From Nannocystis pusilla (GTDB taxonomy: Bacteria > Myxococcota_A > Polyangia > Nannocystales > Nannocystaceae), in the NCBI RefSeq assembly GCF_051105105.1, contig NZ_CP185339.1: a stretch of DNA of 64,000 nt; one strand, written 5' to 3'. The notes under the pieces are model-generated. The model was not told where the DNA came from. It searched no databases and saw only the letters and a program-made list of their open reading frames with translations. This document shows, piece after piece, positions 46,422 through 63,259 of this stretch. A program made the translations under genes and the position numbers. Within the stretch, counting starts at the first letter, position 1; each line of letters begins with the position of its first letter.

Positions 46422-46568
46422 GACAGGCCCGACAGGGCTGCGTAAGCCTGGATCGGCGGGGCCGGGCGTTCAAGGGCGGGCCGGAGGACGGGCGTGCGCG
46501 GGCGATCGCGGGCTCGCGTGTGAGCGCGCCACGTTGCCCTCGCCGGCGTTTGATCGTAGGCGTAGGCG

Positions 46569-47930
<1,362 letters not shown>

Positions 47931-47933
47931 GGT

Positions 47934-50257
47934 TCAGGGGACGTTGAAGGTCGCGACGTCGGTGGGGCTGCCGCTGGCCGGCGGGACGTGAGCGGTGACG
48001 CTCCACGAATGATTGGACCACTGCGAACCGCCGAGGATGCACGGGTTGTCGGCCGGGGTGAAGGTGCACTCGCCCCAGCCGTCGTCGCCGAGCGGGACGC
48101 ACTGGAGGTCCCACTCGGGGAGGCCGCCGCGGAAGGCGGTGTTGACGACGTAGTCGTAGAGGCCGTGCTGCTGGTGCGTCGCGTTCACGTGGATGGTGAA
48201 CTGATGCGGGCTGTTCACGTCCTCGGTGGTGGCGGCCCCGGGCGCGCGGAACACCAGCTTCGGGTATTGCTGGCAGTCGAGGAGGACGCCGTCGCGCGGG
48301 CGGACGATGACGGGGCCGCCCGACAGCGGCTCGCAAGCCGGCCCCGTGGCCTCGCACTCCTTCCAGATCTCGCCGGCGGCGAGGATGATCTTGATCGCGT
48401 CGAACAGCTCGCTGCCGAAGGCCTCCCACCCGAACTCGGCGCCGCCCTCCCAGAAGGCCATGTTGCAGGTCTCGCAGCCGTTCATGGTGTTGCGCAGGCC
48501 GACGGTGGCCAGCGGCGCGACGTAGGGGCCGTCGAGGAAGCCGAGCGTCATCACGAACTTGGCCAGCAAGGTGGCGCTGAGCCTCGGGGCCCATGGCGGC
48601 GCCGAAGTTGTCGAGGAAGCCGTTCACGTGGGTCTCTAGCCCGGTCCGCCAGCCGGTGTGATCCTTGAAGGCGGTGCCGGTGGCGCTCGCAGCGACGGTG
48701 CCGGTGAACTTGTAGGCGGCCTCGATCTCCAGCTCGGGCCGCAGCATGATCGACACCGGGATGGCCAGCGGCAAAGTCCCGAGGTAGAACTCGCCGAACT
48801 CGAGGGACTGGGTGAGGCCGGCCTTGACGATGATGCTGGCGTGGATGGTCGGCGTGATCGCCACGTCCGCGTGGGGGATGCTGAGCCAGTCGACGTCGAG
48901 CTCGAAGCGCTCGAACGTCGAGGCCGGGGGAGAAGTGGAGCTCGCCGTGGCCGCCGAACTTGAACACCAGCCTGGGGCCGCCAGGAGGGGGGATCGGGTC
49001 CTCGTCGAGCGCGAGCGTTCCGAGCTCCACGAGCTCGCCGGAGCCCGCGGGCTCGGGGAGCACGACGATCTCGTCGGGGCACGGCGCCTCGACGCAGGCG
49101 ATGTCGGAGGTGTCGATCGGCAGGTCGCGCACGCCGAAGAAGCCGCCGGCGAGGACGGCGTCGAGGCCGACCGGCTCGCCGAGGAGCACGAGGTCGGCGT
49201 CGTCGTAGGTGACGGATTCGACGCGCAGCATGTAGCCGCGCGCGCCGCCGTGGCCGACGACGACCTCGCCCGCGGCGACGTCGGGGAGCGTCGCCGCGTC
49301 CTTGAAGTGGAGCACGACCTGGCTCAGGTCGGGGGCGGGCTTGACGGTGACGTCGGCGCCGAGGAAGTCGGGCCGCTGCTCGAGGAAGTGGACATCGGGC
49401 TTGTAGTCGAGGTGGTTGGCGTAGATGTCGGTGCCGGCCCAGATCCGCCGCTGGCCGTCGCTGACGACGAGCTCGGGCCGGTGCTTGCCGACGGCGTAGG
49501 TCCACTGCGGCAGGGCGGCGGTCTTGACGAGCTCGGTGGTGCGGCTGCAGGGCTCGTGGATCACGTCGGGCTGGCCGTCGGCGTCGAAGTCGAACTCGCA
49601 GCGCAGCTGGGCTGCCGGGTCGGCGGTGAGCCGCCAGCCGAAGTGGGCGGACACGGGAGCGTCGCCCCAGCCGGCCTCGACGGGATCGAAGCGCTCGACC
49701 GTGAGGGGGGCCTCGTCGCAGGTGTCGTCGCCGCCGATCGCGGCGAAGATCAGGCGCGACTGGGCGGCGTAGGAGAGCTTGGGCCGCTGGACCGGGAGCG
49801 GCTCGCCGAACGCGAGGTCGAGCTCGTAGTAGCAGTCGGGCAAGCGCACGCGCAGGAGGTAGGTGTCGCCGGTGAGGCGGGTGGTGTGGACGTCGAAGGC
49901 GGTCGGCGGGTGGATCGGGTCGAGGCCGAGGTTGATGCCCTGGGTGGTGTAGGCGGCGAGGGTGAGGCGACGGTGGTCGGCGGCGCACTGGGGGGTGACC
50001 GCGAAGGACAGCTCGACGACGTCGCGGGGCCGCGCGAGCTCGGCGAGGCCGGTGGCGAGGTCGGTGGTGACGTCGAGGGTGCCGTCGTCGTGATGCAGGC
50101 GCAGCTTGGTGTCGGTGAGACAGTCGAGCCCGGGAGCGGCCATGAGGCTGGCCTCGCGCGGGGAGATTTCGGTCTGCGGCGCGAGCTCGGGGTCGCAAGC
50201 GGCGACGACTGCGAGGCTGACGGCAGAAATGAGGAGGCGCGGCGGAAGAGCGGGCAT
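47934..50257 (-). CDS. Large lipoprotein split over three frames by two 1-nt frameshifts, both at C-homopolymers (~48925 ccccc; ~48590 cccc)
   Basis: Start MPALPPRLLISAVSLAVVAAC (lipobox) in track ORF 48551..50938. Continues as ...FERFELDVDWLSIPHADVAITPT... in ORF 47788..48864, then ...LLAKFVMTLGFLDGPYVAPLA... to the stop in ORF 47934..48569. Removing one C at each site restores a single frame. Confidence 0.55.
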
Positions 50258-50582
50258 GGTCGTTCTCGCCGGCGGCAGTGCAGCGCCCATGCCACGCGCG
50301 TCGGCGGGGCGCAGGGCGGTTGGAGGCGGGTTGTGGTCGGGCGGTCGACACCCGCCGCGTGGGCGTGGTCCGGCCGACGACAGGGGCGGGAGAGCGAGGG
50401 TCGGGGCGCCGGGTGAGGGTCGGCGGCTCGTGGGCACCAGCGGGTGGCGAGCCCGGAGCGGACGGCCTCGGCCTCGCGCGCGTGGCCGTCGGCGGACGCG
50501 AGGTTCACGGCCGGCGCGCGGCGCTGCCAACCGGGGCGGCCTCGCGCCCCCAGTCGGGCCCGGGACTTGCACAGGCGCGGGC

Positions 50583-51512
50583 ATGCGACCTGTCTTGCAG
50601 TCCTGGACCCCTGTCCGCCTCCTCCTCGCGTCCCTGCTGTGGACCGCCTGTGCCCCCGAAGACGAGGAGGTCGAGCTCCGCGTCCTGCTCACCGGCGGCA
50701 ACTCGGGCGGCGGCCCGGTGTTCAACACCCACGCCCTCGACGACCACCAATTCTCCGAGCTCGGGCCGCTCGGGGTGCCGCACGTCGGCGCGGGGCTCGA
50801 CGGGGTGGCGCTCGCGGGCGACGTCGCGTTGACGGAGCTGGGAGTGGACACCGGCGAGCTCGTCGGTGTGGACGGGGTCGGCGAGGAGCACCGCGGGGCC
50901 GCGCTGCTGGGCTCGGAGTGGACCATCGGCTTCAACATGGGGCTCGTGTCGCTGCCGATGTTCCTGCTCGACGTGCTCGAGATCGACGGCGTGCCGCACT
51001 ACCAGTTCTTCCACCACCAGGGCGACGTCGAGGTGCCGAACTGTCCCGAAGGCCAGGGCGGCCCCGGCCTCGCGCGGGTGCTGTCGGGGCTCACCATCCA
51101 CGAGGCCACCGGCGAGGTGATGTCCGCGCCGGGGCTGCTCTACCTGGCCTGCGACACCGGCGCGACCGGCAAGGCGGCGGCGCTCGGGTACTATGATTTG
51201 GCGAAGACGACGCAAGACCTCGAATTGTTCGAGACGGCGATCCGGGTGGTCCGCGCCGATTATTGCTACGACGGGAGCGCGCACACGCAGGCCGGGGTCT
51301 CGGTGGTGCTGGAGGACGTGTGGGGGATCCACGGGACCACCGACGAAACCTTCAAGAGCCCGGTGGAGGCCGCGTGGGGCCGGGCGGGGCTGATCTGCCG
51401 CGGCAAGGGCCGGCTCGACGCGATCGATTGCCACGACAAGATCCCCACGTGTCCGGTGGGGGCGACGTTCGCGTCGCTGCCGGACGCGCTGTTCATCACC
51501 CGCCTGCCGTGA
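50583..51512 (+). CDS. ADYC-domain lipoprotein
   Basis: Start MRPVLQSWTPVRLLLASLLWTAC (lipobox) in track ORF 50106..51512. C-terminal motif VVRADYCYDGSAHTQAG is the ADYC signature. Confidence 0.7.
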   Translation: MRPVLQSWTPVRLLLASLLWTACAPEDEEVELRVLLTGGNSGGGPVFNTHALDDHQFSELGPLGVPHVGAGLDGVALAGDVALTELGVDTGELVGVDGVGEEHRGAALLGSEWTIGFNMGLVSLPMFLLDVLEIDGVPHYQFFHHQGDVEVPNCPEGQGGPGLARVLSGLTIHEATGEVMSAPGLLYLACDTGATGKAAALGYYDLAKTTQDLELFETAIRVVRADYCYDGSAHTQAGVSVVLEDVWGIHGTTDETFKSPVEAAWGRAGLICRGKGRLDAIDCHDKIPTCPVGATFASLPDALFITRLP

Positions 51513-54526: not shown

Positions 54527-54928
54527 ATGGGTGAGGTACTCCAGCTCAGCGATCTGCAGCTCGGCCTGCTGCGGATCTTGTGGGACCGCGGGGAGGCGAC
54601 GGCGCTCGAGGTGCATGCGGCTCTGGTCGAGCAAGAGCGGGGGCTCGCGCCGACGACGGTGTCGACGATGCTGTCGCGGCTGGAGAAGAAGGGGACCATC
54701 GCGCACCGCACGGAGGGCCGGCAGTTCATCTACCGGGCGCTCGTCTGTGAGGTGGACGTGAGGCGCTCGATGCTGGGCAGGCTCACCGACTACTTCTTCG
54801 GCGGGGACGTGGCGGCGCTGGTCAGCCACCTCGTCGAGGGCCGCGACGCCGAACCGGACGACGTTGCGCGCCTGCAACAACTATTGGCCGAACGATCCGG
54901 CGGAGCTGAGGAACACGACGATGTTTGA
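54527..54928 (+). CDS. BlaI/MecI/CopY-family transcriptional repressor
   Basis: MGEVLQLSDLQLGLLRILWDRGEATALEVHAALVEQERGLAPTTVSTMLSRLEKKGTIAHRTEGRQFIYRALV. The track ORF begins 3 codons earlier at a TTG. Confidence 0.8.
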   Translation: MGEVLQLSDLQLGLLRILWDRGEATALEVHAALVEQERGLAPTTVSTMLSRLEKKGTIAHRTEGRQFIYRALVCEVDVRRSMLGRLTDYFFGGDVAALVSHLVEGRDAEPDDVARLQQLLAERSGGAEEHDDV

Positions 54929-57143
54929 TCTTGCGATCGATCCTGCCGGCCTCGCCGGTCTCGCGGCGCCTGCCGCTCACACGACGGTGAGCTGGCTCGG
55001 CACCTACTTCGTCCACTCGACGGTGCTCATCGGCGGCGTGTGGATGTTCAGCCGCTTCCTGCCGCTCGACGCGCTGACCCGCAGCTTGCTGTGGAAGACA
55101 TCGCTGGTCGGCGGGCTGTTCACGGCGACGCTGCAGACGGGGCTCGGGGTCGAGCCGATGTTCGGCCGCGTCACCGTGGCGGCGAGCAGCCCGGACCTGG
55201 GCGCGCCCACGACGGCCCCGGCGCCGCCGCCGGTGGTGGAGGAGGAGCCGGCGACGCTGCTGGTGCCGTTCACCCGCGCGTGCGTCGGCTGCGAGTCGCA
55301 CGTGGTAGTCGTCAGCGACGACGACATCACGGCGGTGTTCGCCTCGCCGCCGCTGTTCGTCGACGCGCCGGGCTGGGCGGTCGCGCCGACGCCGGCGCTG
55401 ATGCCCGCGCCGACGACCGAGCCGCCGCTGGCGGCCGCGCCGATGCAGATCGCTACGGCGGGTCCGGTCGGGGGCGTGAGCGCGGCGGTGTGGGCATTCG
55501 CGGGGCTGTTCGTGTTCGGCGCCGCGGCCTCGCTCGGCCGGCTCGGGATGACGTTCTCTCGCCTGCGCCGCGGGCTCCGCGGTCGTCGCCTGCTCGGCTC
55601 GGGCTCGCTGCGCGAGCGCCTGACGCGGCTGCTGGCCCACGCGCGGCTGCCCGGCCACAGCGTCACGCTGAGCGAGTCGGCGGACATCAGCTCGCCCATC
55701 GCCCTCACCGGCCGCGAGATCGTGGTGCCGGAGCAGGTGCGCGAGCTGGCGCCGCGGCAGCAGGAGGCGATGCTGGCCCACGAGCTGGCCCACGTGCTGC
55801 GCCGCGATCCGGCGTGGCAGGTGATGGCGGCGTTCGTCGAGTCGCTGCTGTTCTTCCAGCCGCTCAATCGAGTGGCCCGTCGCGGCATGCAGGAGGCGGC
55901 GGAGGAGCTGTGCGACGACTGGGCGGTCCGCCACACCGGTTCGGAGGTGCACCTGGCGCGCTGCCTGGCCGAGGTCGCGGCGTGGCCTGGCCATCGGGAC
56001 ATGTCGGCGTTCGCCAGCCCGATGGCGGGGCACGCCTCGCAGCTGGTGCGCCGGGTGCAGCGCCTGCTCGACGTGCACCTGCGCGACCGCGGGCTGTGGG
56101 CCCGGCGCTGGCGGGTGGCCCTCGGCGCGGCGCTGCTGGCGATGGTGACGTTCGGCGCGCCCGGGCTGTCGATCGCGGCCGAGGCGCAAGATGCCCCCGA
56201 GTGGCCGACGACGCCCGACAACGGGCCGGCGCCGCAGCCGTCGCTGTCGTTCGTCCACGTGCCCGAGACGCCGATCGTGGCCGTGCGGACGCCGCATAGC
56301 CACGCGGTCCACGGGCACGACATCATCGTCGTCGAGCATGCGCAGGAGCTGACCCGCAAGCAGAAGCGACTGCTGCGCCGCGCCGAGCGGCACGCCCGCA
56401 AGGCGGCCAAGCTGCGCGCCAAGAGCGGGCTGTACGCGGTGCCGGCGACGCACGCGGTGTACGTGCCGGTGTCGCACGTGACGCCGCCGACGCCGCCGAC
56501 GCCGCCGACGCCGCCGACGCCGCCGACGCCGCCGACGCCGCCGACGCCGCCGAGCTTCAAGGTCGTCGTCGCGCACGACCACGACGACTGCGACGACGAC
56601 GATCACGACGTGATGGTCCACCGGATGGCCGTCCCGCACGTGGCCGTCCACCCGCCCGTGTTCCACGTGCCGGACATCGACGAGGAGGCGATCGCGGCCC
56701 AGGCCGAGGCGATCGCGGCCCAGGTCGAAGCCCAGCTCCAGGGCCTCGACGAGCAGATCGAGCGCGAGCTGGAGAGCATCGACTTCGACAAGATCGCCGC
56801 CGACGTGGAGCGCGGGGTCAAGGCGTCGCTCCGCGGCGTCGAGCGGGCCCGCGAGGACGCCGAACGGGCCCGCGAAAACGCCGAGCGGGCGCGCGAGCGG
56901 GCGGACCGGGCGCGCGAGCAGGGCGACCGGGCGCGTGAACAGGGCGACCGGGCGCGCGAGCGGGCCGAGCGGGCGCGCGAGCGGGCCGAGCGGCAGGCCG
57001 AGAAGGGCCGCCGCAAGGCCGACGCTTCGCGGGCCGCGGCCGCGGTCCGCAGCGCGGTCGACGAGGCGCTGCGCGACGGAGTGATCGACGCCGAGGAGCA
57101 GCGCAAGATCAGCGAGGCGGCCCGCCAGGTCCGCATGAAGTGA
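54921..57143 (+). CDS. BlaR1/M56-family membrane metallopeptidase signal transducer with unusual C-terminus ((PPT)8 tract plus charged coiled-coil RAREQGD repeats)
   Basis: Start MFDLAIDPAG overlaps the repressor stop. Four TM helices. HELAHVLRRD zinc motif. A 9-bp tandem repeat (ccgccgacg x8, ~56473-56550) encodes PPTPPT... C-terminal ERARENAERARERADRAREQGDRAREQGDRARERAERARERAERQ. Confidence 0.8.
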   Translation: MFDLAIDPAGLAGLAAPAAHTTVSWLGTYFVHSTVLIGGVWMFSRFLPLDALTRSLLWKTSLVGGLFTATLQTGLGVEPMFGRVTVAASSPDLGAPTTAPAPPPVVEEEPATLLVPFTRACVGCESHVVVVSDDDITAVFASPPLFVDAPGWAVAPTPALMPAPTTEPPLAAAPMQIATAGPVGGVSAAVWAFAGLFVFGAAASLGRLGMTFSRLRRGLRGRRLLGSGSLRERLTRLLAHARLPGHSVTLSESADISSPIALTGREIVVPEQVRELAPRQQEAMLAHELAHVLRRDPAWQVMAAFVESLLFFQPLNRVARRGMQEAAEELCDDWAVRHTGSEVHLARCLAEVAAWPGHRDMSAFASPMAGHASQLVRRVQRLLDVHLRDRGLWARRWRVALGAALLAMVTFGAPGLSIAAEAQDAPEWPTTPDNGPAPQPSLSFVHVPETPIVAVRTPHSHAVHGHDIIVVEHAQELTRKQKRLLRRAERHARKAAKLRAKSGLYAVPATHAVYVPVSHVTPPTPPTPPTPPTPPTPPTPPTPPSFKVVVAHDHDDCDDDDHDVMVHRMAVPHVAVHPPVFHVPDIDEEAIAAQAEAIAAQVEAQLQGLDEQIERELESIDFDKIAADVERGVKASLRGVERAREDAERARENAERARERADRAREQGDRAREQGDRARERAERARERAERQAEKGRRKADASRAAAAVRSAVDEALRDGVIDAEEQRKISEAARQVRMK

Positions 57144-57317: not shown

Positions 57318-57872
57318 TCAGGGGGCCGCCCAGGTGCAGGGGTCGGGCGTGGTCTCGCCGCCGGCGTCGGGATCGGCGGGCAGGTCGAGGGAGACGACGA
57401 GGCGGTCCTGCAGCTTGATCGCTCCGGCCAGCGCCTTGTACGGGGCGATGCCCCACTGGGAGGGCACGAGCGTGAAGTCGGCGCGCAGGCGGTCGCCCTC
57501 GACGCGGACCGGGGCGCGCACCGGAGCTGTCCTTCCGAGCATGACCAATCGGCCATCCAGGATCCCGCCGGGGGTGAGCGCCCCGGTGAAGGTGACCTCC
57601 GGGTGCTGCGCGGTCAGCAGGATCTCGTCGGTGATGTTGCGCTGGATCTTGGCCTTGTCGCCGGCGCCGAGGCCGTCGACGTCGACGCGCCCGTCCTTGC
57701 CGACGACGCCGTCGACCTTCAGCGTGGCCGGCCAGAAGCGACCGCTGAGCGCGGTGCCTTCGCGGCGGATCTCGAAGCGACCCAGCGACAGCCGGAGATC
57801 GTGGGCGAGCCGCGCGAGCAGGCCGTCCTTGAACGTGAAGACGTGGATCGTGCCTTTGTCCTGCGTGTTCAT
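57318..57872 (-). CDS. YceI-like family protein
   Basis: Start MNTQDKGTIHVFTFKDG in track ORF 57318..58199. 184 aa with a YceI-like beta-barrel pattern (FTGALTPGGILDGRLVMLGRTAPV). Confidence 0.7.
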   Translation of the reverse strand: MNTQDKGTIHVFTFKDGLLARLAHDLRLSLGRFEIRREGTALSGRFWPATLKVDGVVGKDGRVDVDGLGAGDKAKIQRNITDEILLTAQHPEVTFTGALTPGGILDGRLVMLGRTAPVRAPVRVEGDRLRADFTLVPSQWGIAPYKALAGAIKLQDRLVVSLDLPADPDAGGETTPDPCTWAAP

Positions 57873-58183
57873 GGGAATTCCCGGTCCGTTGCCTGCGTTG
57901 CCAGTCCGTCGCCGGCGGGCGGCGGGTCGAGGACGGCCACCGCGAGAGCAGCCAATTCCACATTGCGGATGTGGATGTAGGGGCGCATCGTCGCTTCGAG
58001 CGTGCTGTGACGGGCTAGCTTCTGCAAGGCCAGCGGAGGCACACCGACCTGCGCGGCGAGCTTCAGGGCGGTGTGTCGGTGCATGTGAGGGGCCTTGGGC
58101 GCAACACCCGCCTCCCGCTGGATGGCATCGACCCGGGTGGCGTCTCCGCGAGCTCGACCCCGAAGCGGCCCACCCGCGGACAT
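57869..58183 (-). pseudogene. 3' fragment of a tyrosine recombinase/phage-integrase gene (catalytic H-x-x-R ... Y box only)
   Basis: Track ORF of 104 aa. PHMHRHTALKLAAQVGVPPLALQKLARHSTLEATMRPYIHI is the integrase C-terminal catalytic region (HxxR, catalytic Tyr). No N-terminal or core domain upstream. It abuts the YceI start. Confidence 0.6.
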
Positions 58184-58265
58184 CCCGTGGCGGCGTCATC
58201 TCGACCGGACGCCCGGCGGCTCGGGGGGCGGCGTCTCGTCCATGCTCCCAGGTTTTAAAGCTCCG

Positions 58266-58874
58266 TTACCCGCTCTTCTCCCGCGAGGGATGAGCCCCGA
58301 CGCCGAACTGGTACCCGAACGCTGCGATGTCGGCCGCGTAGATCTCTTCGACGATCGACCTGGTCTCGTCTTCGTAATAGTCAGTGTAGAATTTGTGTTC
58401 AGTCTTGAAGACATGCGGCAACTGTCTGGCCCCGATCTGAAGATGTGAGCAGATCCTGGCGAAGTCGCTCTGAAGCGCCTCGAAGCGGCCGATGAAATCG
58501 ACGGCGATCGTTCCCCCGACGCTCAGGCGTGTCACCTGCGGCGACAACGCGTCTTCTAGCCACAGTGCCGAGGATGACAGCCTGACCCCGTTCTTCAGCC
58601 GTCGTAGCATCTCGGAGAAGTCATAGTCGAACAGACGCTGATGATCTCTGCTCCAGAAGTACCTGGACACCAACCAGTCCCATGGATTGCGGACGAACGC
58701 GAACTTGTAGTACGTGCGAAACCTGTCGGGGAAATTTTCGCTGTAGAAGGCCGCCGTCGCGTGTTTCAGATCCACGTCCCTTCGATCGGCCGCAGCATCG
58801 AAGACCTTTTCGATGCTGGTTCCCCCCGTCTTGTTGATATGGATAAAGATGAATTTGTGAGCATCGGAGATCAT
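58266..58874 (-). CDS. Sulfotransferase family protein (PAPS-dependent; 5'-PSB-like KTGGTS and 3'-PB-like RNPWDWLVSRY motifs)
   Basis: 202 aa starting MISDAHKFIFIHINKTGGTSIEKVF. GC visibly lower (~55%) than surrounding genes. Confidence 0.7.
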   Translation of the reverse strand: MISDAHKFIFIHINKTGGTSIEKVFDAAADRRDVDLKHATAAFYSENFPDRFRTYYKFAFVRNPWDWLVSRYFWSRDHQRLFDYDFSEMLRRLKNGVRLSSSALWLEDALSPQVTRLSVGGTIAVDFIGRFEALQSDFARICSHLQIGARQLPHVFKTEHKFYTDYYEDETRSIVEEIYAADIAAFGYQFGVGAHPSREKSG

Positions 58875-58901
58875 GAGGAGACCCCAGAGGAAGTCGGTGC
58901 G

Positions 58902-59774
58902 TCAGATGGATGGGGCGTCCGGCTCGCGGTCGGCGCCACCGATGAGGATCGCATACACGACGGCCTCCGTGGCCGGCTCCAGGCCGAGCAGCGCGTTGAA
59001 GGGCTCGTCCCAGAAGCCGCCGACGGGCACCGCGTGAAGGTCGAGCGCCGTGGCCGCGAGCAGGATGTTCTGCGCGATGTGCCCGGCTTCCAGCAGCGCG
59101 AATCGATACCCGCGCTCGAGGTACTTCGCCTGGACGCGGGCGAACACGACGGTGAGCGCGAGCACCAGCGGAGGCCCGGAATCGAAGAGATCGGGCGGCA
59201 GGAACTCTCGCATCACGTCGAAGCCGGCGACCGGACGCACGAGCTCGAGGGCGTGATCGAGCGCGGCGTAGTGATACACGCCAGGAGTGAGCGCTTCGAG
59301 CGAGAAGACGAGCGGGTAGACCTCCACCGGGTAGAGCCCGCCGGGCGACGGCGCGGCGCGGCGTGGAACCTCCAGCGGCGCGGTGACGCCCGCCGAGAGC
59401 TCGAGCAATTTCGCCAGCTCGCGCTGGGAGACGGTTCTACGCGAGAACGTCCGCGCCGATCGCCGCCGGCGGATCAACGCCTCGAAGCTGGCGGTCAGCG
59501 GCTCCGGCCGCGGCAGAGCGATCGTGGGCGCGCCGGGGTATCGCTTGTAGTCGAGGTTGAGCGTGAGGGCCTCGACCTCCGCGACGGTCAGGGTGCCGGT
59601 CCACTCCGGACCCATGGAGCTGTGCTGGTGATAGACGCGTGAGGCCGGCCAGCGGCACTCCGCGGGCAGGCCGAACGGCGCGAATTGAGCCCGGCGCTCC
59701 ACGTCCATGCGCTGGCGCAGCGCCTCCAACGCGCGGCCGATCTGCTCGGCCGTCCACGGCGCTTCGTCGTTCAC
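58902..59774 (-). CDS. SagB-type dehydrogenase / nitroreductase-superfamily protein (McbC/SagB-like)
   Basis: GTG start (VNDEAPWTAEQ...) with GGAGGTG 5 nt upstream, in the frame of track ORF 58902..61061. RRRSARTFS...RRAAPSPGGLYPVEVYPLVF...AKYLERGYRFALLEAGHIAQNILLAATALDLHAVPVGGFWD matches the SagB-type dehydrogenase domain. Confidence 0.7.
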   Translation of the reverse strand: MNDEAPWTAEQIGRALEALRQRMDVERRAQFAPFGLPAECRWPASRVYHQHSSMGPEWTGTLTVAEVEALTLNLDYKRYPGAPTIALPRPEPLTASFEALIRRRRSARTFSRRTVSQRELAKLLELSAGVTAPLEVPRRAAPSPGGLYPVEVYPLVFSLEALTPGVYHYAALDHALELVRPVAGFDVMREFLPPDLFDSGPPLVLALTVVFARVQAKYLERGYRFALLEAGHIAQNILLAATALDLHAVPVGGFWDEPFNALLGLEPATEAVVYAILIGGADREPDAPSI

Positions 59775-61061
59775 GTCGCACCTCCGAGGTTCTGCTCGGG
59801 CGCAACGACGGCGAGGAGCCCGAGACCGACGAGTTTTTCGGCGAGGGCGAGCTTGGCGGGGGCGGTCAGGCCGTCGTCGATGTCGGCGATCCGAAACGGA
59901 CCCTCCGCGGCGAGGATGCCACGCAAGGCCGCCTCTGCGACCCTGCCTGTCCGGAGCATGCCGCCTCCGGCGAGGACGAGCACGGCTGCGTCGGCGTCTC
60001 GCGTGAGCTGGAATTCGAGCTCCGGCCGGCGCGCCACCAGGGTCTGCAACGAGATCTCGTGCGCCATGAACGACGATTCCAGGCGGGCGAGCGGAGGAGC
60101 CATCATTCCCTGCAGGTGGCGCTGCGCGAGGCCCTCGCACAGATCCTCGAGACTCAAGTTCGCAAGCGCCTCGCGCACCCGCTCGAGGCGGGCCGCGAAC
60201 TCTCGGCGGAGCGGCTCGTGCCGATGTCCGTCGAACAACGCGCCCGCCGGGAGCGGGGCCGTGAAATCGCGGGTCCGGGCGAGGCTCGCCCGCAGGAGGT
60301 CCAGCACGGAGCTCCACTGGAACGGCTTGAACACGACAGTGAGGGAGAACGAGGCTGATTCGTTCGTGACCTCGTGGACGAAGCCGCGGGGGAGGTAGAG
60401 CAGGTCGCCGGGTTCGAGGACCAGGTCGTGCGTCGGCTCCCCGAGGTCGGCCCGGGAGTGCATGCCCGGACCCTCGGCCTCGACGCGGGGAAAGATCTGC
60501 CATCGCTTCGAACCGGAGATCTGGAGCGTGAAGATCTCCGTCTCGTCGTGATGCGGGCCCAGGCCGGCCGCCCTGGGGGGCGCGATGTAACACGAGAGCG
60601 AATCTTCTGGGGTGCTGGAGCGTGCGCTCCATCTGCCGCAACATCGCCATCACGGGGGCGCCGGGATCCAGGAAGCATTCCATGCGCCGCAGCCGAATCG
60701 GGCTTCCGAGCAGCACACGCTCGTGGAGCTCGTCGAGCGCGGCCGGCGGAGCTGCCGGCCAATGGCCGTCCTGCGACGGTGTGGTGATCGAGCGCCGGCC
60801 GAATATCCCCTCTATCGAGAGGTAGCGCTCGACCTCGGCGAGGTGGATGAGGTCTTTATAGTAGTCGCGCCTCCCGCGGGCCAGGTGGAGCGGGCGTCTC
60901 CCCCAGTACTCCGAGCAGAACGCGTGGAACGGCAGCGGCTCGATGAGCGCGGCGAACGACCAGGGCGCCGCGAAGACGGCGGAGCCCTCGCCGCGAACGA
61001 GGAAACGCTCCCCGAGGTCGAGGTCACGCGGAAGCCCAGCGGGACGGCCGTGCATCGACAA
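59771..61061 (-). CDS. JmjC/cupin-4-like Fe(II)/2OG oxygenase (HHDE facial triad) with apparent 1-nt frameshift at a G/C4 run (~60610)
   Basis: N-terminal part MSMHGRPAG...FHAFCSEYWGRRPLHL...MERTLQHP in the frame of ORF 58902..61061. Continues in another frame as EDSLSCYIAPPRAAGLGPHHDETEIFTLQISGSKRWQIFP...LEPGDLLYLPRGFVHEVTN (track 59771..60463). Deleting one C in cacccca joins them. Confidence 0.65.
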
Positions 61062-61328
61062 TAGGTGGGACGGAATGTCGGGGGCTCGATGGAGCGAATG
61101 ATCGAACGTCGTTGGCAGCCGCCGTAAGGCGTTCTTCTGGTGTGATTGTTGGTTCAGAACCGAGCCTCTCGAATTCGACCTGCCGCGCCGTCGGGCGGCC
61201 GGACGTGGCGATGATTCAGCGCTGCTGTAACGAAGCTAACCTCACTCGATGATTCGCCGGCGACATATTCGACAAGGGCTCGGACTCGGCTCATTTAACA
61301 TACCGCCAAATGCACCCGGAGGATTGGG
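61062..61328. promoter_or_regulatory. Divergent promoter region between the oxygenase/SagB/sulfotransferase operon and the precursor-peptide genes; AT-richer; GGAGGATTGGG-ATG RBS for the precursor
   Basis: 267-bp intergenic stretch with reduced GC. A strong SD lies immediately before 61329. Confidence 0.5.
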
Positions 61329-61610
61329 ATGGCAGACAAGACGAAGCAGGCCAAGTTCGACGAGATTTTGGGACGCGCGATCCGTGACCGAGAGTTCAGG
61401 ATGAAGCTCGTGAACAACCCGAAGGCGACGGCCGCAGAGGTCGGGCTGACGGAAGAGGAGGCGAACCTGATCACGGGCGGTCTGGCGATCGGGAATACGT
61501 TGCTCTCGCCGGGCAGCGTCGCGTGGTGCACGGCCAAGACGTGCTACGAGAAGGGCGATTCGCGCTCTCTCGACATCGACCCGGTCAAAAAAGGCGGCGG
61601 TCAGCCGTAG
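61329..61610 (+). CDS. Putative RiPP precursor peptide with NHLP (nitrile-hydratase-leader-like) leader, GG cleavage motif and Cys/Ser/Thr core
   Basis: MADKTKQAKFDEILGRAIRDREFRMKLVNNPKATAAEVGLTEEEANLITGG | LAIGNTLLSPGSVAWCTAKTCYEKGDSRSLDIDPVKKGGGQP. The leader aligns residue-for-residue in character with the NHLP/TOMM-type leader pattern (..KAW.DeaFkq.LL.nPkaa..e.G..lpe). Strong RBS. Confidence 0.6.
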   Translation: MADKTKQAKFDEILGRAIRDREFRMKLVNNPKATAAEVGLTEEEANLITGGLAIGNTLLSPGSVAWCTAKTCYEKGDSRSLDIDPVKKGGGQP

Positions 61611-61622
61611 GCGAGGCGACAC

Positions 61623-61874
61623 GTGCGGTCATTCGCCGAGAGCTGCGCCTTACTCGACAGCATCGTCGGTCGCTGCGTGCGCGAGCCGGAGTTCGCGGAG
61701 CGCGTGCTCGACGAGCCCGAGGCGGCGCTCGCCGCCTACGGGCTCGCCAGACACGAGCTCGACGACTTCCTCGCGCTCGCCGGCGACCACAAGCAGGAGG
61801 CCGCGGAGACCTGGGCGGCGATCCGGGCGGGCATCGAAGCCCGGCGGCGGGCGCGTCGTCATCCTCGCGGATGA
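61623..61874 (+). CDS. Second NHLP-like leader-containing small protein (GTG start), possible second precursor or degenerate copy
   Basis: VRSFAESCALLDSIVGRCVREPEFAERVLDEPEAALAAYGLARHELDDFLALAGDHKQEAAETWAAIRAGIEARRRARRHPRG. The central segment parallels the leader of the upstream peptide. No GG/Cys-rich core is apparent. Confidence 0.4.
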   Translation: MRSFAESCALLDSIVGRCVREPEFAERVLDEPEAALAAYGLARHELDDFLALAGDHKQEAAETWAAIRAGIEARRRARRHPRG

Positions 61875-61890: not shown

Positions 61891-62535
61891 TCACGGCTCG
61901 GCCCAGAGCCTCAGCAGTCCATCGTAGGACCTGCGGAGCCGATCGCCTTCTGCCTGGGTCCCGCCCCCGAAGAGCTCGAGGTAGTGCAGCGCGCAGCCCA
62001 TGTCGTAGAGGATCTCTCGCTGGGCCGGGTCGCGGACCCGGCTCTGAACTCGAAGTGTGCCGCTCCAGCGCGTCCCACGAGTCACTGGAGCGACACGATG
62101 CGACGCCGACGCAGGGAGCACGACGCACACGCCAGCGCCTTCCCTGTACGTCTCGTCGCCGTAGCCGCTGTCGATCAGGAGCTCGCCGCCGTCATAGTCG
62201 GCCGGATCGCTCAGGAGGACGGTGGCGAACGCGTCGACGCGAGCCAGAGCGGTGCGCTCGCCGCCTGGGGGCGGGTGAATATCGGTACAGCGCCCCATTT
62301 CGTGGCACGCGAACGTCACGGGGGCGACTGCGCTCGGCTGGACGCCGAGGCAGAAGAGGGGGTGGGCACGCAGCGCGTCCGCCAGGCGCCGGCCGGCCTC
62401 GCCCTCGACCTCTGCGTCGACTTCGCTCGCTACCCGCGAGGTCGGTCTGCCGCCGCGAACGCGACCGGAGAGCGATTCTGCCAGTCGGGCGGCCGCCGCG
62501 GCGGGCAGCACGTCGTGCAGGCGGATGATCATCAT
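61891..62535 (-). CDS. PKHD-type (PiuC/YbiX-like) Fe(II)/2OG hydroxylase paralog with atypical first metal motif (HEM instead of HxD)
   Basis: Start MMIIRLHDVLPAAAAARL in track ORF 61891..62913. LLSDPADYDGGELLIDSGYGDETYREGAGVCVVLPASASHRVAPVTRGTRW parallels PiuC-type LFLSDPxxYxGGELVV...SxLHxVxPVTRGxR. Confidence 0.65.
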   Translation of the reverse strand: MMIIRLHDVLPAAAAARLAESLSGRVRGGRPTSRVASEVDAEVEGEAGRRLADALRAHPLFCLGVQPSAVAPVTFACHEMGRCTDIHPPPGGERTALARVDAFATVLLSDPADYDGGELLIDSGYGDETYREGAGVCVVLPASASHRVAPVTRGTRWSGTLRVQSRVRDPAQREILYDMGCALHYLELFGGGTQAEGDRLRRSYDGLLRLWAEP

Positions 62536-62611
62536 GCAGAATGCATGGACCAGGGGAGGGCGGCAGGCAAGGACCGGGCCCAATCTCAGGGTCTGCAGAC
62601 AGGTGCGAATC

Positions 62612-63259
62612 ATGCCCATGTGCTTCGTCATCAAGAATGTATTGAGTCTGGAAGACCTCACGCAAATCCGCGCGTCGCTGATGAATGAGGCGTTCATCGA
62701 CGGCCGGGCAACGTCGACGCTCGCAGGCAAGAATAACCTCCAGCTCCCGCAAGAGGGGGCGACGTACGAGGCGGCCAGCGCGCTGGTGCGGCGCCGCCTG
62801 CTGGCGAACGAGAGCTTCCAGCTCGCCGTGTACCCGCGAACCCTCACGTCGCCGCTCTTCAGCAAGTATGAGATGGGGATGGAATACCCCGAGCACGTCG
62901 ACAGCGCGGTCATGGGCGGGTGCCGGGCCGACGTCGCGGTGACGCTGTTCCTCAGCGAGCTCGATGCCTATGAAGGCGGCGAGTTGGTCGTGGACACCGG
63001 GAATGGCGAGCGTCGCTATCGACTCGACGCGGGCGACGCCATCGCCTATCCGGCGTCGACGCTCCATCGCGTGGCTCGTGTCGCCCGCGGGACGCGGCTC
63101 GTCGCGGTGATGTGGGTGCAGAGCCTGATCCGCGATCCCGCGAAGCGACAGCTCCTCCACGACCTCGGCTCCGCCGTGAATGACCTGAAGGAGAGCGTCT
63201 ACAGCGCGCGAGTGCGCCGCAGCCACGCGAACCTGCTGCGACTGTGGGCCGAGCTCTGA
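62612..63259 (+). CDS. PKHD-type (PiuC/YbiX-like) Fe(II)/2OG hydroxylase, canonical HVD...H...R
   Basis: Start MPMCFVIKNVLSLEDLTQIRASL in track ORF 62525..63259. EHVDSAV, LFLSELDAYEGGELVVDTGNGERRYRLDAGDAIAYPASTLHRVARVARGTRLVAVMWVQSLIRD closely follows the E. coli PiuC/YbiX pattern. Divergent from the paralog, sharing a ~76-bp intergenic region. Confidence 0.75.
   Translation: MPMCFVIKNVLSLEDLTQIRASLMNEAFIDGRATSTLAGKNNLQLPQEGATYEAASALVRRRLLANESFQLAVYPRTLTSPLFSKYEMGMEYPEHVDSAVMGGCRADVAVTLFLSELDAYEGGELVVDTGNGERRYRLDAGDAIAYPASTLHRVARVARGTRLVAVMWVQSLIRDPAKRQLLHDLGSAVNDLKESVYSARVRRSHANLLRLWAEL

Follow-up and report, generated by a model that had tools for sequence, protein, structure and literature searches.

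Few genetic tools are available for Nannocystis; in other myxobacteria, Mx8/Mx9-type integration modules are the standard workhorses. Mx8 targets tRNA-Asp genes, and Tojo and colleagues are said to have described, in 1996, the replacement of about 112 residues in this phage. [quoted passage not shown] Here, we analysed a stretch of 64,000 nucleotides (hereafter the window) from the 12.2-Mb chromosome of the myxobacterium Nannocystis pusilla. The feature under study is a tyrosine-integrase pseudogene relic at a decayed integrative element, a well-known and ordinary kind of genomic scar. The best overall explanation, to which we assign a probability of roughly 85%, is that an element inserted upstream of a YceI-family gene, was destroyed in the window strain, and left a slot that was later filled by a RiPP-like block.

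A truncated integrase gene at the YceI start codon

The YceI neighbourhood was compared among seven related loci: those of N. punicea (L001), N. radixulma (L002), the N. pusilla-type strains L003 and L008, Nannocystis sp. ILAH1 and RBIL2 (L006/L007), and N. exedens (L009). YceI was syntenic in all seven, and the YceI of the window fell in one exact-sequence cluster with those of N. pusilla, N. punicea, N. exedens, ILAH1, and RBIL2. The order of genes on this conserved core side was YceI, BlaR1-like, and BlaI-like. In the BlaR1-like M56 peptidase (54864–57143, plus strand), the C-terminal half is long and of low complexity; it contains a run of PPT repeats and a coiled repeat of the (E/D)RARE type and gives rise to spurious long ORFs on the opposite strand. 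Approximately 4.9 kb (about 46498–51425) was common to the window, ILAH1, and RBIL2 and missing in L003 and L008, the core side being otherwise syntenic. The features around the YceI start codon were the following:

57318–57872, minus strand: YceI-family gene (PF04264, 32.2 bits; cutoff 23.7), the first gene on the conserved core side
57869–58183, minus strand: 104-codon ORF, a chimera of 14 junction codons, the integrase remnant, and 8 read-through codons, followed by TGA
57873–57913, minus strand: attachment-site-like module of GGCAAC-type repeats and the 10-bp palindrome GGGAATTCCC; putative attR-side remnant
57893–57895, minus strand: stop-loss codon CAG, aligned with the TAG integrase stop of N. 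exedens, N. punicea, L003, and L008
57896–58141, minus strand: integrase-derived DNA, a pseudogene remnant corresponding to approximately residues 395–479 of the 479-aa N. exedens integrase
58142–58265: junction DNA between the stub and the sulfotransferase stop, without homology to integrase or to the related loci

A tblastn search of the 64-kb window with the N. exedens integrase aligned residues 395–479 with 58141–57896 at 81% amino acid identity (E 5e-34), and no second match was found in the rest of the window. By blastn, the remnant was 88.8% identical to the N. exedens locus, starting at L009 position 8536. The PF00589 Phage_integrase profile matched the 104-aa product over positions 113–169 of 172 (E 2.3e-5); its score of 24.7 bits fell below the gathering score of 27.1 because only these profile positions are there. 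Alignment to the N. exedens integrase showed that the H-x-x-R motif (HMHR), the second His (ARHS), and the Tyr (RPYIH) are still found in the stub, and that Arg-I (LRIGE motif) and the beta-hairpin Lys (SPKGE) fall within the 394 residues that were lost. The HTH_17 and Phage_int_SAM_3 domains of the N. exedens protein were not found in any frame of the window. These results bear out the initial annotation, which had recognised only the C-terminal catalytic box of a tyrosine recombinase, with neither a core-binding nor an N-terminal domain. Because it is without Arg-I, the Lys, and both DNA-binding domains, the stub is non-functional as a recombinase. The 104-codon frame is the decayed last fifth of a phage-type integrase gene, derived from the family and not a functional member of it.

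Only 57896–58141 within the ORF is integrase DNA. Codons 1–14 (58183–58142), which include the start codon, derive from junction DNA that is unrelated to the integrase gene. At the other end of the ORF, 8 sense codons and the TGA exist because the ancestral TAG turned into CAG, which opened the frame into the YceI start, where the ORF stop (57871–57869) and the YceI ATG (57872–57870) share an ATGA overlap. The overlap of the stub with the YceI start (57869–57872) had been noted earlier, and the identity of YceI was confirmed by PF04264. At the stub, the NCBI annotation has just a 71-aa hypothetical protein starting with MHRHT (P0001); stub homologues are 147 aa in N. punicea (“phage integrase family protein”) and 66 aa in short-read assemblies. 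The promoter and terminator scan found nothing, including no sigma-70-like promoter, and the Rfam scan gave a spurious miRNA match only. In agreement with the earlier statement that no tRNA is adjacent, ARAGORN detected neither tRNA nor tmRNA in the whole 64 kb; the junction sits at the YceI start codon instead.

We regard as practically negligible the probability that a full-length integrase is hidden here by a sequencing or assembly error. The neighbouring JmjC gene does have a frame break, so indel errors are conceivable. However, integrase homology stopped abruptly at 58141 in every frame, and the sulfotransferase stop follows 123 nt on, leaving no space for 394 codons, so that no full-length frame is recoverable. 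The other two minus-strand frames yielded no additional integrase sequence, and an in-frame stop lies immediately 5′ of the ATG of the ORF. Truncated stubs were, moreover, present in independent assemblies of other strains. Alignments (blastn) with L001, L003, L008, and L009 all terminated at 58141/58142, and local alignment of the window junction with that of L008 scored 17, no better than chance (shuffles, 14.4 ± 2.2).

The intact element and a candidate attachment site

N. exedens carries a full-length 479-aa integrase (L009 7354–8793), with 20 nt separating its end from the start of the orthologous YceI. It comprises HTH_17, Phage_int_SAM_3, and Phage_integrase domains (PF00589, 75.6 bits) and matches phrog_1 (E 1e-41). 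The genes 5′ of it are phage-like: one encodes an S49/head-maturation-type protease and another an endolysin-like PG_binding_1 protein. The left end of this element is cut off by the contig end at L009 position 1. A 10-kb activated-sludge contig (L011) has the same set of genes, its integrase being 66% identical, and the set therefore represents a real element family. Apart from the integrase stub, the window contained none of the genes of the N. exedens element. With an intact integrase and phage-like genes at the orthologous N. exedens position, the stub can be taken as what the initial annotation had proposed, the remnant of an integrative element. An Mx8-style split integrase, in which an orphan 3′ piece lies at the far end of a prophage and reads inward, was considered and rejected: the stub points with its 3′ end toward the conserved host flank, and in N. 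exedens the intact gene lies in the same place. When the full-length integrase was searched against 50,697 phage records (tblastn, E ≤ 1e-5), 203 matches were obtained, none from a Myxococcus phage; IMG/VR contained no close relative of it, the one match being 30% identical.

The module next to YceI consists of a degenerate GGCGAC (57913–57908), two GGCAAC repeats (57902–57897 and 57893–57888), and GGGAATTCCC (57882–57873), which abuts the YceI ATG and occurs once in the window. At approximately 20 loci, including those from a metagenome scan, three direct GGCAAC repeats followed by GGAATTCC were found in the last integrase codons, even at protein identities of 40–46%. Homology between the window and the integrase-less ILAH1 and RBIL2 loci begins exactly at the palindrome (57882), and L011 departs from the Nannocystis sequence right after GAATTCC; together, these two boundaries place the element/host junction at 57872/57873. 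Judged by conservation and by the positions of these boundaries, 57873–57913 is likely an att remnant that overlaps the 3′ end of the integrase gene. The HTH_17-integrase, the target upstream of YceI, and the GGCAAC/GGAATTCC module in the 3′ end of the gene point to an undescribed family of myxobacterial elements.

Direct repeats at the flank of the island, which had been suggested as a signature to look for, were not recovered: when the 100 nt next to YceI were aligned locally to the rest of the window and of each relative's locus, no direct repeat scored above the range of shuffled sequences. Up to 64 kb, the window contained no second GGAATTCC site and no further GGCAAC cluster, with none in 58.2–64 kb. 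An 11-nt match to CCGGGAATTCC at L009 position 466 was considered as attL and rejected, as it lies inside a coding ORF and has no GGCAAC repeats nearby.

The metagenomic loci L016–L031, with integrases of about 41% identity, have the module of three GGCAAC repeats and GGAATTCC in common. Approximately 50–60 nt past the integrase stop they are joined, in either orientation, to myxobacterial Cys-rich repeat genes (…CDDGN…; GGCAAC = Gly-Asn). L016 carries two integrase copies in inverted arrangement, and L025, L027, and L031 have more GGCAAC/GTTGCC arrays 250–370 nt further downstream, which may represent tandem elements or second att arms.

Decay of the stub and turnover of the slot upstream of YceI

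In integrase numbering, the stub starts at residue 325 in N. punicea, 380 in L008, 393 in L003, and 395 in the window; the ILAH1, RBIL2, and N. radixulma loci (three of the seven) have none. Each of several copies bears its own lesion: the catalytic Tyr is a Cys in L003, HxxR reads HAPH in N. punicea, and TAG is CAG in the window. Across the 74 codons shared by the three N. pusilla-type stubs (Nei-Gojobori method), dN/dS was 1.09–2.06 for the stub vs. 0.12–0.26 for YceI in the same genome pairs; the counts are small, but the direction of the difference fits neutral drift. When the window was compared with L003 and L008, dS was 0.09–0.12 for the stub and 0.086 for YceI, and this match indicates that the stub was vertically inherited in these three. 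Truncation thus apparently predates the split of the window strain from L003 and L008, whose upstream DNA is unrelated. In N. punicea, stub dS was 0.87–1.0 vs. 0.24–0.28 for its YceI, an excess suggesting that a related element was acquired separately at the same site.

The breaks at residues 395 (window) and 393 (L003) lie only two codons apart, though the upstream DNA is unrelated, and this near-match was treated as coincidence. The window, L003, and N. punicea had seemed to break at one and the same 5′ position, as an intragenic recombination hot spot would explain; this idea was dropped, as tblastn and alignment placed the starts at the different residues given above. An example of stepwise stub erosion was seen between L003 and L008, where a 238-nt deletion (L008 9480–9717; L003 9717) at the junction of a 232-aa ORF and the integrase stub, flanked by the near-repeat ccggact/cgggagt, removed 13 more integrase codons in L003. 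The closest relatives of the window strain, ILAH1 and RBIL2 (92–95% nucleotide identity), are stub-less and more distant strains keep the stub, so that the history requires at least one extra loss or allele replacement.

These patterns also bear on whether the stub has been domesticated, its 104-aa product being translationally coupled to YceI via ATGA and having a function such as the regulation of YceI or the binding of core sites in related att sequences. Such a role would fit a frame that has stayed open with HxxR, His, and Tyr preserved, and also the 4-nt ATGA overlap with YceI. We nevertheless consider it very improbable in view of the stub dN/dS of about 1 or above, its absence from the closest relatives, and the mutation of key residues in sister copies. 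The overlap is, furthermore, due solely to the stop loss in the window strain, the start codon lies within unrelated junction DNA, and neither the 71-aa hypothetical protein called by NCBI nor the promoter scan lends such a product any support.

Upstream of the junction DNA, the visible part of the RiPP-like block comprised the following features:

58266–58874, minus strand: sulfotransferase family 2 gene (PF03567, E 9e-15; GC approximately 57%), the first gene of the strain-specific block
58902–59774, minus strand: SagB/ThcOx-type dehydrogenase gene (PF00881, 83 bits; P0034, 290 aa)
59771–61061, minus strand: JmjC-type gene in two reading frames, with a break near 60567–60610 (tblastn with the L053 protein)
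61329–61610 and 61623–61874: PF14407-like small ORFs, with matches below the Pfam gathering score
61891–62520 (minus strand) and 62618–63259 (plus strand): divergent pair of PKHD-type dioxygenase genes

GC content was 0.69–0.74 on the YceI side vs. 0.57–0.59 across the sulfotransferase (58250–59000); it was 0.61 at 61000–61500 and 0.64 at 62500–63000, against approximately 0.70–0.76 in the flanking core. The best relatives of SagB were metagenomic proteins of 66–69% identity, none from Nannocystis, and the dioxygenase and both small peptide ORFs had no cluster mates at 90% identity. The sulfotransferase, SagB, JmjC, peptide, and dioxygenase genes were not found at the YceI site in any of the seven related loci. 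Taken together, the distant SagB relatives, the lack of cluster mates, and the absence from seven loci identify the block as strain-specific acquired DNA. In L053, the metagenomic locus with the closest SagB cluster, YcaO, an ABC transporter, further JmjC genes, PhyH, and a methyltransferase lie beside SagB; neither YcaO nor an ABC transporter gene was detected in the visible part of the window cluster (58.2–64 kb). The 422-aa JmjC protein of L053 matched the window by tblastn in two frames (aa 15–162 in frame −3, aa 149–419 in frame −1), and the PF08007 match covered the 3′ part of the gene only. This break is either a true frameshift in a decaying cluster or a sequencing error, and it makes the “719-aa SagB ORF” an artefact, the real SagB being 58902–59774.

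An internal 468 nt of the sulfotransferase gene (58294–58761) is 93% identical to a lone sulfotransferase gene in RBIL2 (L005 10042–10509), on the same contig as YceI and about 1.9 Mb away, both limits of the homology falling within the gene; in ILAH1 there is a sulfotransferase fragment of 111 aa. The gene appears to move, or to fragment, independently of the RiPP block.

The slot between a conserved PAS/STAS gene and YceI is variable. It measures 1.07 kb in ILAH1 and RBIL2 and approximately 7.1 kb in L003 and L008, where it holds genes for an M4 peptidase, OmdA, a nitroreductase, and the 232-aa ORF; the N. exedens slot holds the element, and that of the window exceeds 6.1 kb and runs past the window end. 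For the stub-less loci, homology to the window ended at 57882 (ILAH1/RBIL2) or about 57921 (N. radixulma). The initial annotation had placed the stub exactly where composition and gene content change, which agrees with the drop in GC to 0.57–0.59 and with the ends of homology at 58141/58142 or 57882–57921. It had also taken the stub as the boundary of a RiPP-like island and had called for a comparison with syntenic relatives. That comparison placed the block at this site in none of seven, so the boundary claim holds as far as the edge of strain-specific DNA is concerned; that the island is a single discrete insertion would be no more than a possibility, as no att duplication was found in the window, which ends before the island does. 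The block is, moreover, not in the gene set of the intact element.

Whether the block could have been cargo of a variant element was weighed against this evidence. An internal deletion would then have fused the sulfotransferase end to the stub, and the DNA from 57873 to beyond 64 kb would be one decayed element. The layout, running from cargo through an outward-reading integrase and att to the host flank, is the classical one; the absence of the block from the site in all relatives, combined with the distance of the SagB relatives, implies horizontal acquisition; and GC is heterogeneous across the block. Against this stand the intact or near-intact elements of N. exedens and L011, which have phage-like genes and no RiPP genes, and the equal dS of stub (0.09–0.12) and YceI (0.086), which indicates a vertical stub that was already truncated in L003 and L008 with different upstream DNA. 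In addition, 58.2–64 kb is without an att-like site or GGCAAC cluster, and the L053 SagB cluster has no integrase nearby. We therefore consider cargo unlikely. Since intact elements are without such genes, the stub was apparently already truncated in the ancestor shared with L003 and L008, the visible block contains no att-like site, and L053 has no integrase nearby, the RiPP-like block was probably a separate, later arrival.

In the history that we prefer, that of an inserted and later destroyed element, a phage-like integrative element would have inserted immediately 5′ of the Nannocystis YceI. It would have encoded, at its end and reading outward to YceI, a tyrosine integrase of 479 aa whose N terminus bears an excisionase-type HTH, and the att sequences of the element (GGCAAC repeats plus the GGGAATTCCC palindrome) would have overlapped the last integrase codons and the next 20 nt. 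In the window strain the element would have been destroyed, with the last ~85 integrase codons and the att-side module surviving; a secondary event probably replaced the body of the element and cut the integrase back to residue 395. The remnant then drifted neutrally and lost its stop codon, so that its frame came to run into the start of YceI. Strain-specific DNA would have filled the slot that the element left: the low-GC sulfotransferase, SagB, the frameshifted JmjC, two Frankia-type peptide genes, and the dioxygenases.

A broader proposal is offered only tentatively, and we would not presently bet on it. HTH_17-Int elements may constitute an undescribed myxobacterial family with att (three GGCAAC repeats plus a GGAATTCC core) inside the integrase 3′ end, as in Mx8. 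Their target in front of YceI may be a recurrent hot spot of insertion and replacement, hit at least two times independently and now capturing unrelated DNA, including a RiPP-type cluster.

Significance and comparison with known systems

The stub alone is routine genome archaeology, a dead integrase at a variable locus. What it offers is precision, as the edge of the strain-specific RiPP-like cluster can be fixed to the base, at 58141/58142, and the element/host junction at 57872/57873. For anyone mining the cluster, it matters that it was recently acquired and is in part decayed, with a frameshifted JmjC gene and no YcaO in its visible part. The locus also points to an integrase/att system of Nannocystis that has so far gone uncharacterised and that has a defined site in the chromosome. 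Its less common features are the target, which lies in front of YceI and not at a tRNA gene, the HTH_17-integrase architecture, and the GGCAAC/GGAATTCC module in the 3′ end of the gene.

The strain-specific block resembles RiPP clusters with Franean1_4349-type (PF14407) peptides and SagB in having SagB, JmjC, PKHD-type dioxygenases, and two PF14407-like small ORFs, and it shares with the metagenomic L053 the order JmjC then SagB. It differs from such clusters in that its visible part is without YcaO and ABC transporter genes, its JmjC gene is frameshifted, its PF14407 matches are sub-threshold, and a low-GC sulfotransferase is added.

With lambda-type tyrosine integrases of phages and ICEs and their remnants, the stub shares the box II HxxR, the His, and the Tyr. 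The placement of the integrase gene is also that of these systems: it lies at the element end, reads toward att, and abuts host DNA. As in decayed islands, the remnant marks a strain-variable region. In contrast to these systems, the target here is the bases before the YceI gene and not a tRNA or tmRNA, the parent integrase has an N-terminal excisionase-type HTH_17, and the sequence available here has no flanking direct repeats.

Mx8 offers a further comparison. The element here differs from it in showing no sequence similarity to any Myxococcus phage (E ≤ 1e-5), in involving only approximately the last 10–15 codons, and in targeting the region upstream of YceI. The likeness lies in the host, which is also a myxobacterium, and in the GGCAAC repeats and palindrome, which overlap the last integrase codons. 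Since the integrase ORF ends a few bases from the element/host junction, integration would set the C-terminal tail of the integrase.
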